Source: Streptosporangiales bacterium
GTDB taxonomy: Bacteria; Actinomycetota; Actinomycetes; Streptosporangiales; WHSR01
Length of the DNA stretch: 64,000 nucleotides
Direction: 5' to 3'
NCBI GenBank assembly: GCA_009379995.1
Contig: WHSR01000010.1
Location: 18,214-82,213 of the forward strand
In this document: one piece after another, positions 60,186 to 61,802 of the stretch
How positions within the stretch are numbered: the first letter of the stretch is position 1
Layout: every line of letters begins with the position of its first letter
Position numbers and translations under genes: made by a program
Notes under the pieces: model-generated
Databases searched by the model: none
The model's input: the letters and a program-made list of their open reading frames with translations, nothing else
What the model was told of the DNA's origin: nothing

Positions 60186-61802
60186 TCAGACCTTTGTCCG
60201 GTGGAAGCTCCTGTACGACCGCGACGGGGTGGGGCCGCGCTGACCCTGGTACCGGGAGCCGTGTACGGCGGAGCCGTACGGGTGCTCGGCCGGCGAGCTG
60301 CAGCGGAACAGGCAGAGCTGGCCGATCTTCATGCCAGGCCACAGCTTGATCGGCAAAGTCGCCACGTTCGACAGCTCGAGCGTGACGTGCCCGGTGAAGC
60401 CGGGGTCGATCCACCCAGCCGTCGAGTGGGTGAGCAGCCCTAGCCTTCCGAGGCTCGAATTATGCGTCGGGATGTAGGTCCGGCCGGCGAGGAAGAGCCC
60501 GGTGGGTGCTGCCACCTGGATGCATCGGACCGGCCGCGGTTCGACCGGACGTACGTCGACGATCGCCCGGAACCGATGAAACCGGCCCTGCTTGAGGCGG
60601 CTCAGCTTGCGCCGCAGCCGGAAGACAGGGAGCCGTGGGGTGAACTTCACCTGGTACGCAACGCCGTGCTCGATACCGTTGAGGGTGACCCGCTTCTTCC
60701 GCTTGACTGGCCGCAGTCCGAGGCTCGCCGCCAGTTCCACGACGGCGTCGGCCAGATTCTCTCGGATGCTGGTGAACTCGCAGCGGCCGATCTCGTCGGC
60801 ATAGCCGTCGGAGTCCATGAGGCCTTGGAGCAACGCAAGCCGCTGGTCGACCGACGCCCGCAGGTACATCTCGGGAACGTACTTGTTCCGCAGAAGGGCA
60901 AGGGCCTCCATCTCTCTCGATAGCGAGCCGTCGGACACGTACTGGCCGGTGAACGTGTCGCGAAGGCGGCCTCGGCGGCGTCGCGACAGGCCCCCGATCC
61001 GGTATGCCCGGACTCTGTTGGCCGGCCAGACCGCGTACCCAGCTGCCTGGATCTCGTCGAGGATCTGCTCGTCCCCGGCGCCCACCGTCACCTCGGCCTT
61101 GGTCTCCGTCCCGTCACCGAGCCAGATGCCGAGGACGTACGGGTCGATCGGCAGGTCTTGCTCGGGATACTCCGCCGGTCCCGCGATCGGGACGTGATGG
61201 TTCCACTCGTCGCCCGCGCGCAGCGACCGCGCGAGTTCCCGCGTGGTCCGTACCCGCCCCGGCCTGCCGCGCTTGCGCTCCGACTTCATTGTGGTCAGCC
61301 ATTGGTGATCAAGGTCGGCGACGAGCGACTGGCCATCCGAGAACACGACCTCGCGGCATGCACGGTTCGTCATGATCCCCGTTGCCGCCACGACCACGGT
61401 GGCCTGCCCGCGTTCATCGAAGACCTGGTCCCCCACGCGCAGGGCGTCCATTGTGCGCCAGCCGCCGGGCGTAGGGATGGGCGTGTCGATGGCCAACGCC
61501 TTCCCCTCTAGCCGGCCGGCGACGTCGTCGGGGAGCGTCACGGCCTCGTACGTGGAGGCGAGCACGAACTCGCCGGGGTGCAGGACGAACGGCTCCTCGC
61601 CCTCGGTCTCGACGAGCCGGGTGAGGTCGGGCTGCTCGATGGCCGGGTCGATGTGCGGGTAGCGGTGGTTCTCGAACACGCGGAAGTACCGATCCAGCCG
61701 GACGTCGATGCTCGACGGCTGGACCATCTTCGGGTCGTACGGGTCGATGACGACCCGTCCCGACTCGATAGCGGTCCGGATGTCGCGGTCAGAGAGGAGC
61801 AC
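60186..61802 (-). CDS. dcd: dCTP deaminase interrupted by an intein (exteins 101 aa + 90 aa)
   Basis: The N-extein is MLLSDRDIR...[11 protein letters not shown]...[12 protein letters not shown]...[10 protein letters not shown]. The C-extein is [31 protein letters not shown]...[13 protein letters not shown]. Confidence 0.9.
   Translation of the reverse strand: [538 protein letters not shown]
60459..61499 (-). mobile_element. Intein (347 aa) with LAGLIDADG homing-endonuclease domain; class 3-type signature
   Basis: Starts [14 protein letters not shown] and ends YIPTHN, followed by Ser+1. Block B reads DLDHQW, the LAGLIDADG motifs are [10 protein letters not shown] and [12 protein letters not shown], and block F is [16 protein letters not shown]. 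Junction codons were checked nucleotide by nucleotide. Confidence 0.85.

Follow-up and report, generated by a model that had tools for sequence, protein, structure and literature searches.

Class 3 inteins are defined by a Trp-Cys-Thr (WCT) triplet, with Trp at position 12 of block B (B:12), Cys at F:4 and Thr at G:5, together with a non-nucleophilic residue 1 (PMC2807308). Two of them, DnaBi1 of Mycobacterium smegmatis (Msm DnaBi1) and DnaB1 of M. chimaera (MchDnaB1), have been studied experimentally and their structures have been solved. As of 2010, class 3 inteins were known only from helicase- or ATPase-like hosts (PMC2807308), and a phage survey of 2025 reported class 3 inteins in only four host proteins (bioRxiv 10.1101/2025.01.02.630785). 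Here we describe an intein in dcd, the gene for dCTP deaminase (Dcd), in a 64,000-nt stretch of DNA from a Streptosporangiales bacterium (contig WHSR01000010.1, positions 18,214 to 82,213 of the forward strand), referred to as the window, in whose numbering positions are given. The features of this insert are very probably best explained jointly, by a class 3 dcd intein that carries a PI-SceI-like endonuclease with residues D129, K206 and D231 and that originated from an intein of a P-loop nucleoside triphosphatase (NTPase).

Host gene and splicing domain

In the Pfam search the DCD domain is split around an insert, and Hom_end and LAGLIDADG_3 are found inside it with scores above the cut-offs, in line with the family assignment expected in the first-pass annotation of this DNA. 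The precursor scores 199.5 bits against the NCBIfam model TIGR02274 (dCTP_deam; cut-off 92.8). The spliced extein of 191 aa aligns without gaps, residues 1-189 to 1-189, with the M. tuberculosis Dcd:dUTPase 2QXX (E 2.7e-92). Because the alignment is gapless and the junction segment is identical in both proteins, the extein numbering equals that of M. tuberculosis, and the insertion separates K101 from the catalytic Ser102, corresponding to R110 and S111 in E. coli numbering. The first-pass annotation had put the insert directly before the active-site Ser, and this alignment bears it out; the open reading frame (ORF), insert boundaries and motifs quoted there proved correct to the base when the codons were read and checked by script. 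At the N-terminal junction, read on the reverse strand, Lys101 (AAG, 61502-61500) is followed by Ala1 of the intein (GCG, 61499-61497), and at the C-terminal junction Thr-His-Asn (ACG CAT AAT, 60467-60459) is followed by Ser+1 (TCG, 60458-60456), which gives an intein of 1041 nt or 347 aa.

Residues Ser102, Asp119 and Gln148 have been reported to be indispensable for the dUTPase reaction, and in bifunctional Dcd:dUTPase enzymes E. coli Arg126 is characteristically replaced by an aromatic residue (PMC3360063). The extein in the window shows this bifunctional signature, with S102, D119, Q148 and W117, and its catalytic residues S102, R106, D119, E129 and Q148 are all intact. Residue 117 (precursor residue 464, codon ~60408-60410) is Trp in the window and in the closest relative (P0001), and Phe in most relatives with or without an intein (STAGW/FIDPGF); both residues are aromatic, consistent with the bifunctional type. 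Judged by these residues, the host gene is a dCTP deaminase/dUTPase of the bifunctional type. Since the insertion interrupts the nucleotide-binding motif at Ser102, the unspliced protein is expected to have no activity.

If splicing did not take place at all, the insertion would be dead and dcd a pseudogene. Such a loss might be tolerable, as high-density mutagenesis pointed to Dcd:dut being dispensable in mycobacteria (PMC3360063); for the same reason, the description of dcd as an essential gene in the first-pass annotation was too strong. However, the frame of 538 codons is uninterrupted, the catalytic residues of the extein are retained, the dN/dS ratio (nonsynonymous to synonymous substitution rates) of the extein is ~0.07-0.3, and the splicing residues tallied below do not vary in 144 homologues whose overall identity is only 68-86%. 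A dead insertion is thus extremely unlikely.

The closest matches of the insert in a phmmer search of the PDB were 6RIX (E 2e-23) and 6RIY (E 1.1e-22), both MchDnaB1, and 6BS8 (E 6e-22), which is Msm DnaBi1. The N-terminal columns align as ALA(I/L)DTP...C48...D62..H65.W67 and the C-terminal columns as PVRC(I/V).V...L(F/Y)LAG....PTHN, and the equivalent residues are W67, C118 and T137 in Msm DnaBi1 and H65, W67, C124 and T143 in MchDnaB1. Residue 1 is Ala and hence offers no Cys, Ser or Thr nucleophile. The B:12 Trp is found in H65-Q-W67, the F:4 Cys is C326 in PVRC-IQV (PVRC-VEV in 6bs8 and 6rix), and the intein ends with P-T345-H-N347. The +1 residue is Ser, where class 3 inteins have Ser or Thr and not Cys; SSLGRLGL follows the intein in 120 of 120 protein matches, and Ser+1 is also present in every readable genome locus. 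As the alignment is made directly to characterised class 3 inteins, Trp67, Cys326 and Thr345 can be assigned to B:12, F:4 and G:5. All three fall inside their blocks, as had been proposed from the first reading of the DNA, and the junction codons agree with the non-nucleophilic Ala1 and the Ser+1 claimed there.

Conservation was described on an alignment of 144 dcd inteins: that of the window, those of 120 protein clusters with precursors of 68-86% identity, and those of 23 genome loci, with some redundancy possible across these sources. No exception to Ala1, Cys48, His65, Trp67, Cys326, Thr345, His346 or Asn347 occurs among the 144, and at least 95% have Asp62. For the precursor, an AlphaFold2 model based on 58 sequences gave a predicted local distance difference test score of ~90 across residues 102-448, the intein, and of <55 in the exteins. 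In Foldseek, the modelled intein matched 6RIX, 6RIY and 6BS8 with target-normalised template modelling (TM) scores of 0.83-0.87, as expected for a homologous HINT fold. Every hallmark of class 3 that can be read from the sequence is present.

Ala1 is also found in the class 2 KlbA inteins (PMC2807308), and splicing might follow a route other than that of class 3, for example an attack of Ser+1 on the N-terminal junction as in class 2, with a purely structural role for Cys326. Class 2 inteins, however, lack the WCT triplet and use Cys+1 (PMC2807308), whereas the dcd intein has the triplet and Ser+1. In addition, its closest homologues (E ~1e-22) are class 3 by experiment, with an obligatory F:4 Cys, which makes a different route very improbable.

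In the class 3 mechanism proposed for this locus, dcd would be translated as an inactive precursor of 538 aa with a bipartite intein of 347 aa between Lys101 and Ser102. Cys326, activated by His65, Trp67 and Thr345, would attack the Lys101-Ala1 peptide bond and form the block-F thioester branched intermediate, from which the N-extein would be handed to the hydroxyl group of Ser+1. Cyclisation of Asn347 would then release the intein, and an O-N acyl shift would create the native GK-SS peptide bond, leaving a Dcd of 191 aa and a free intein of 38 kDa. The latter would cut empty dcd alleles.

Besides being a parasite, the intein might act as a conditional switch. Oxidative, chlorine or zinc stress would trap Cys326, for example in a disulfide with Cys48, and thereby pause splicing and throttle the supply of dUMP and dTTP until the cell is reducing again. 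Both cysteines are present in 144 of 144 dcd inteins and align with Cys48 and Cys118 of Msm DnaBi1, for which it was reported that hydrogen peroxide induces a C48-C118 disulfide and blocks splicing in vivo. N-cleavage of MchDnaB1 is likewise inhibited by hydrogen peroxide, and the presumably inactive state of a precursor split at Ser102 would suit such a function. Splicing of Dcd could hence, speculatively, be redox-gated via the Cys48/Cys326 pair. On the other hand, Cys48 of DnaBi1 is required for splicing itself, which explains its conservation without a regulatory role, and the reported dispensability of Dcd:dut in mycobacteria makes a critical checkpoint less likely. Overall, we regard a regulatory role as unlikely.

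Endonuclease domain and inheritance of the intein

The insert matches PI-SceI in the PDB sequence search with an E value of 1.6e-8, and its central 200 residues align with PI-SceI at E 4e-9. In block C, VLGIWLGDG is aligned to LLGLWIGDG of PI-SceI, and block E, with the second LAGLIDADG motif, to FLAGLIDSDGYV. In block D, NKYVPE is aligned to VKNIPS of PI-SceI, which contains the catalytic lysine K301. The two LAGLIDADG motifs with acidic residues seen at first reading are thereby confirmed, their aspartates corresponding to PI-SceI D218 and D326. PI-SceI entries also head the structural matches of the model in Foldseek (E 9e-16, TM up to 0.62), with archaeal VMA inteins and I-DmoI ranking next. 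The dN/dS ratio of the endonuclease part, determined by the Nei-Gojobori method against nine dcd loci, is ~0.1-0.37 and similar to that of the splicing part, these values being rough because dS was saturated (>=1) in most pairs of the comparison.

Full-length inteins make up 106 of the 144 dcd inteins, and 95 of these 106 keep D129, K206 and D231 together. The other 38 have internal deletions, typically between residues ~131 and 207. In the five shortest (262-277 aa), one or both aspartates are lost, while every tallied splicing residue is kept. Endonuclease decay in some lineages is the usual picture, and the window copy, as far as its residues tell, is at the intact end of the range. Its endonuclease most likely still acts, or acted until recently, as a homing enzyme aimed at the intein-less dcd sequence ...CTGGAGGGCAAG^TCGAGCCTCGGC..., where the caret, here and below, marks the junction.

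Inteins at the same Dcd site are carried by at least 120 protein clusters, including those of Pseudonocardia asaccharolytica and Jatrophihabitans, whose members are annotated as "hypothetical protein", "DOD-type homing endonuclease domain-containing protein" or "dCTP deaminase". A genome scan with one genome per species yielded 71 loci, 25 of which are dcd loci with the identical junction RLEGK^ALA...THN^SSLGRLG. Their hosts are Streptosporangiaceae, Pseudonocardia, Blastococcus, Spirillospora, and metagenome-assembled genomes (MAGs) of Frankiales and Mycobacteriales. With at least 25 species genomes and at least 120 protein clusters, the dcd inteins are a large, undescribed and widespread actinobacterial family. 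The MAG MFD03044.bin.3.103 contains two contigs of >125 kb, each with a dcd-intein locus of identical junction DNA (L002 and L003), to be explained by a genuine duplication or by redundant contigs in the bin.

The spliced extein shares 84-88% identity with intein-less Dcd proteins of Streptosporangium, Nonomuraea, Acidothermaceae and Streptomyces. In these, the target region is the same at the protein level, with differences at synonymous sites only; examples of intein-less alleles are L072 and L076, with the site CTCGAGGGCAAG^TCCAGCCTCGGC.

How much the intein still moves was judged from a neighbour-joining (NJ) tree of 240 extein sequences. Intein presence requires 17 Fitch changes on this tree, compared with ~80 for shuffled labels; this strong clustering indicates mostly vertical inheritance with some gains and losses. 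Such a pattern would also fit a case in which splicing works and the endonuclease no longer homes, the intein being a vertically inherited passenger that persists because only a precise deletion at Ser102 is tolerated. The deletions in the endonuclease region of 38 inteins, and the five shortest forms with their lost aspartates and retained splicing residues, fit this possibility, and the identical protein sequence of the target in intein-plus and intein-minus alleles is compatible with activity as well as inactivity. However, the window copy is of full length with all three catalytic-site residues, and the dN/dS ratio of its endonuclease part is ~0.1-0.3 and not ~1. Moreover, intein-less alleles are interleaved among close extein relatives, with nearest neighbours of the opposite intein state in 9 of 121 and 10 of 119 cases. 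We consider a mere passenger somewhat unlikely.

Several other leads were followed and discarded. The guanine-plus-cytosine (GC) content of the intein (0.676) is close to that of the exteins (0.681), with third-position GC only slightly lower in the intein, so that composition offers no hint of a recent foreign import. Beside both junctions (60456-61511 flanks), the extein uses the codons CTA (Leu, twice), AGG and GGA, atypical of a genome of 69% GC; as other intein-plus and intein-minus alleles do not have them, they are probably noise and were rejected as a modified homing site. Finally, the best match to the spliced extein, P0121 (258 aa, on an ENA contig of 1111 nt), was rejected as a mini-intein, the additional part being a duplicated Dcd segment; residues ~53-120 stand in it in tandem, from two different alleles, most likely through a chimeric metagenome assembly.

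Relatives in other hosts and origin of the dcd intein

The remaining 46 of the 71 genome loci carry related inteins in other hosts, with 33-50% identity. After splicing in silico, Pfam identifies these hosts as DnaB, FtsK, three families of the terminase large subunit, a DinG-like helicase and an FtsK/SpoIIIE-like ATPase. At 44 of the 45 loci that could be read, the intein sits between ...GK and a Ser or Thr, an insertion after the Walker-A GK that has been called the "classic" Walker-A site (PMC5050341). Viral contigs contributed 40 further relatives of 31-42% identity, 31 of them after GK; there was no dcd host among these 40. Dcd itself is not a P-loop NTPase and belongs to the dUTPase superfamily, and only its local GK^SS resembles a Walker A motif.

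In the alignment of the splicing domains, 144 of 200 NJ bootstraps group the dcd inteins as a single clade. GK^SSL is common to the Dcd site EGK^SSLG and the FtsK site AGK^SSLL. At the DNA level, the two sites share up to 15 contiguous nucleotides, GGCAAG^TCGAGCCTG, the FtsK P-loop site reading GCCGGCAAG^TCGAGCCTGCTC. Since the EGK^SSL of Dcd mimics the Walker-A context of the relatives' sites, the sequences suggest that one extein switch in the distant past brought the intein from a P-loop host, where it lay after the Walker-A GK, into the phosphate-binding motif of Dcd, a move that was probably allowed by the local GK^SS(L) of this motif. Extein switches have been proposed before, from TerL to Cas4 in actinobacteriophages (bioRxiv 10.1101/2025.01.02.630785) and between the P-loops of non-homologous proteins in Anaeramoeba (PMC10710043). 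A combined scenario, in which a class 3 intein escaped from P-loop NTPases via the five-residue look-alike GK^SSL and now serves as a stress-gated dUMP/dTTP switch in a broad range of actinobacteria, appears quite improbable.

A number of points weigh against the overall reading of a homing class 3 intein of P-loop origin. Splicing, the branched intermediate and DNA cleavage are deduced wholly from homology. The WCT triplet alone is insufficient, because no splicing was obtained when it was grafted onto a class 1 intein in the MchDnaB1 study, although in the present case the whole splicing domain is homologous and not the triplet alone. Inheritance is mostly vertical, as the clustering on the extein tree indicates, which leaves present-day homing a prediction, and the dN/dS values are of limited precision. 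As to the origin, the sister group of the dcd clade varies; the FtsK inteins take this place most frequently, at low support. Furthermore, over +/-21 nt at most 24 of 42 nucleotides are identical between the dcd and P-loop sites, which differ outside the 15-nt core.

Some of the relatives show peculiarities of their own. A few that are not inserted after GK, on viral contigs (L092, L097, L098, L106) and in one genome (L034), have FEGE^, QLGG^, YNYWS^, SGLGA^ and KLNK^ at their insertion points, and they are candidates for further extein switches away from Walker A. Unusually long related inteins of 556-558 aa are found in an FtsK/SpoIIIE-like ATPase of Prescottella subtropica and Rhodococcus zopfii (L035 and L039), one of which starts with Met-Leu-Asp-Cys and not with Ala-Leu-Ala. 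In the DnaB of a Candidatus Dormiibacterota genome (L019), removal of the class 3 P-loop intein leaves a second, class 1-like intein (...RESG^CLPAST...VIAHN^SIEQD); this DnaB with two inteins parallels that of M. smegmatis.

Gene neighbourhood and comparison with known systems

The features of the locus are summarised in Table 1.

Table 1. Positions of the dcd precursor, its exteins and the elements of the intein in the window.
Feature	Position	Strand	Basis and remarks
dcd precursor ORF (N-extein, intein, C-extein)	60186..61802	-	538 aa, GTG start, stop included; Pfam DCD, TIGR02274
N-extein, Dcd residues 1-101, end RLEGK	61500..61802	-	gapless against M. tuberculosis Dcd 2qxx 1-101
Intein, 347 aa, Ala1 to Thr345-His346-Asn347	60459..61499	-	junction codons; homology to 6rix, 6riy, 6bs8
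C-extein, Dcd residues 102-191 and stop, first residue Ser+1 (Ser102)	60186..60458	-	M. tuberculosis Dcd alignment
Cys48, equivalent of Msm DnaBi1 Cys48	61356..61358	-	alignment; 144/144
Block B core, D62-L-D-H65-Q-W67	61299..61316	-	aligned to Msm DnaBi1 D62, H65, W67
His65, B:10	61305-61307	-	144/144 dcd inteins
Trp67, B:12, class 3 Trp	61299-61301	-	144/144 dcd inteins
LAGLIDADG homing endonuclease domain, intein residues ~100-300 (approximate ends)	60600..61202	-	Pfam Hom_end, LAGLIDADG_3; PI-SceI matches
LAGLIDADG motif 1, Asp129 at 61113-61115 (PI-SceI D218)	61107..61136	-	alignment; Asp in 134/144
Lys206 in NKYVPE (PI-SceI K301)	60882..60884	-	alignment
LAGLIDADG motif 2, Asp231 at 60807-60809 (PI-SceI D326)	60798..60833	-	alignment; Asp in 131/144
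Cys326, block F position 4, predicted initiating nucleophile	60522..60524	-	aligned to C118 (6bs8) and C124 (6rix); 144/144
Block G, Thr345 (G:5), His346, Asn347	60459..60467	-	aligned to PTHN of 6bs8, 6rix

Upstream of dcd, at a distance of 58 nt and in divergent orientation, lies a tRNA-Gly(CCC) gene (61860-61932, plus strand) with a terminator-like hairpin at 61936-61962; the Rfam scan of the window found three tRNAs only. In two relatives with an intein-less dcd (L072 and L074), a phage-type integrase is encoded upstream of the gene, and the region upstream of dcd may therefore be an integration hot spot. On the other side and convergent with dcd, 57902-60049 (plus strand) encodes a membrane Fe-S protein of 715 aa with two CCG domains and a 4Fe-4S dicluster domain, a neighbour that is also found beside the intein-less dcd of L072 and L073. 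A long ORF antisense to it (57860-60136, 758 aa) was dismissed as almost certainly an artefact of the high GC content. A scan for promoters and terminators gave nothing informative for dcd. Further upstream, an ORF of 526 aa (62165-63745, plus strand) combines an MFS_1 transporter (residues 14-345) with a C-terminal Sigma70_r4_2 domain (residues 453-501) and overlaps a zf-HC2 anti-sigma-like ORF at 63486-63986; it could be a truncated extracytoplasmic function (ECF) sigma gene joined to the transporter gene by a frameshift, a real fusion or an artefact of ORF calling.

In the literature searched, a class 3 intein in dCTP deaminase was not found, although it may already be listed in a survey table. 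In its main text, Novikova et al. 2016 mention only a "deaminase" Gene Ontology category. The sequences have long been public, and the dcd intein is mechanistically unsurprising, its evolutionary angle being modestly interesting. It widens the host range of class 3, so far mostly P-loops, by a large, conserved family in an enzyme of nucleotide metabolism with a different fold, would provide a clean natural example of extein switching through the short GK^SS motif, and offers a series from intact to decayed endonucleases. The window copy would be useful in work on the specificity of homing and in protein engineering that builds on class 3 inteins. The public annotation of such proteins, as hypothetical or plain dCTP deaminase, needs an intein-aware model.

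The mycobacterial DnaB-b class 3 inteins (6BS8, 6RIX/6RIY) resemble the dcd intein in A1, C48, D62, H65 and W67, which even have the same numbering, in the F:4 Cys, the T-H-N end and Ser/Thr+1, and in the insertion right after Gly-Lys. They differ in their host, a P-loop helicase, whereas Dcd is a beta-barrel enzyme of the dUTPase superfamily. Moreover, these solved class 3 structures are of mini-inteins that have lost the endonuclease, while the window copy is a full-length class 3 intein with a complete and apparently intact LAGLIDADG enzyme. The class 3 prototype, the DnaB intein of mycobacteriophage Bethlehem (MP-Be; Tori et al. 2010, PMC2807308), has a LAGLIDADG endonuclease in addition to the non-nucleophilic residue 1, His65/Trp67, F:4 Cys, G:5 Thr and Ser/Thr+1, and differs from the dcd intein in Pro1, Thr+1 and the helicase host. 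PI-SceI, the VMA1 intein of S. cerevisiae, is the best structural match for the whole dcd intein and aligns with it in blocks C, D and E, but it belongs to class 1 (Cys1, Cys+1), is ~100 aa longer and has another target.

The only Dcd intein found in the literature searched is the HNH-type intein in the dCTP deaminase of cyanophage vB_AphaS-CL131 (PMC6293099), whose splicing has been shown in E. coli. It resides in the same enzyme family, but has an HNH endonuclease and is inserted after residue 132 of an extein of ~204 aa, compared with residue 101 of 191 in the window. It is not described as class 3 and looks like an independent invasion. The switches from TerL to Cas4 and in Anaeramoeba, finally, are alike in that related class 3 inteins reside in unrelated hosts that have a short nucleotide-binding motif in common. 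The proposed switch into dcd differs from both in its recipient, a metabolic enzyme that is encoded in the chromosome and has a fold other than the P-loop; the event also looks old, as the resulting clade has diversified.

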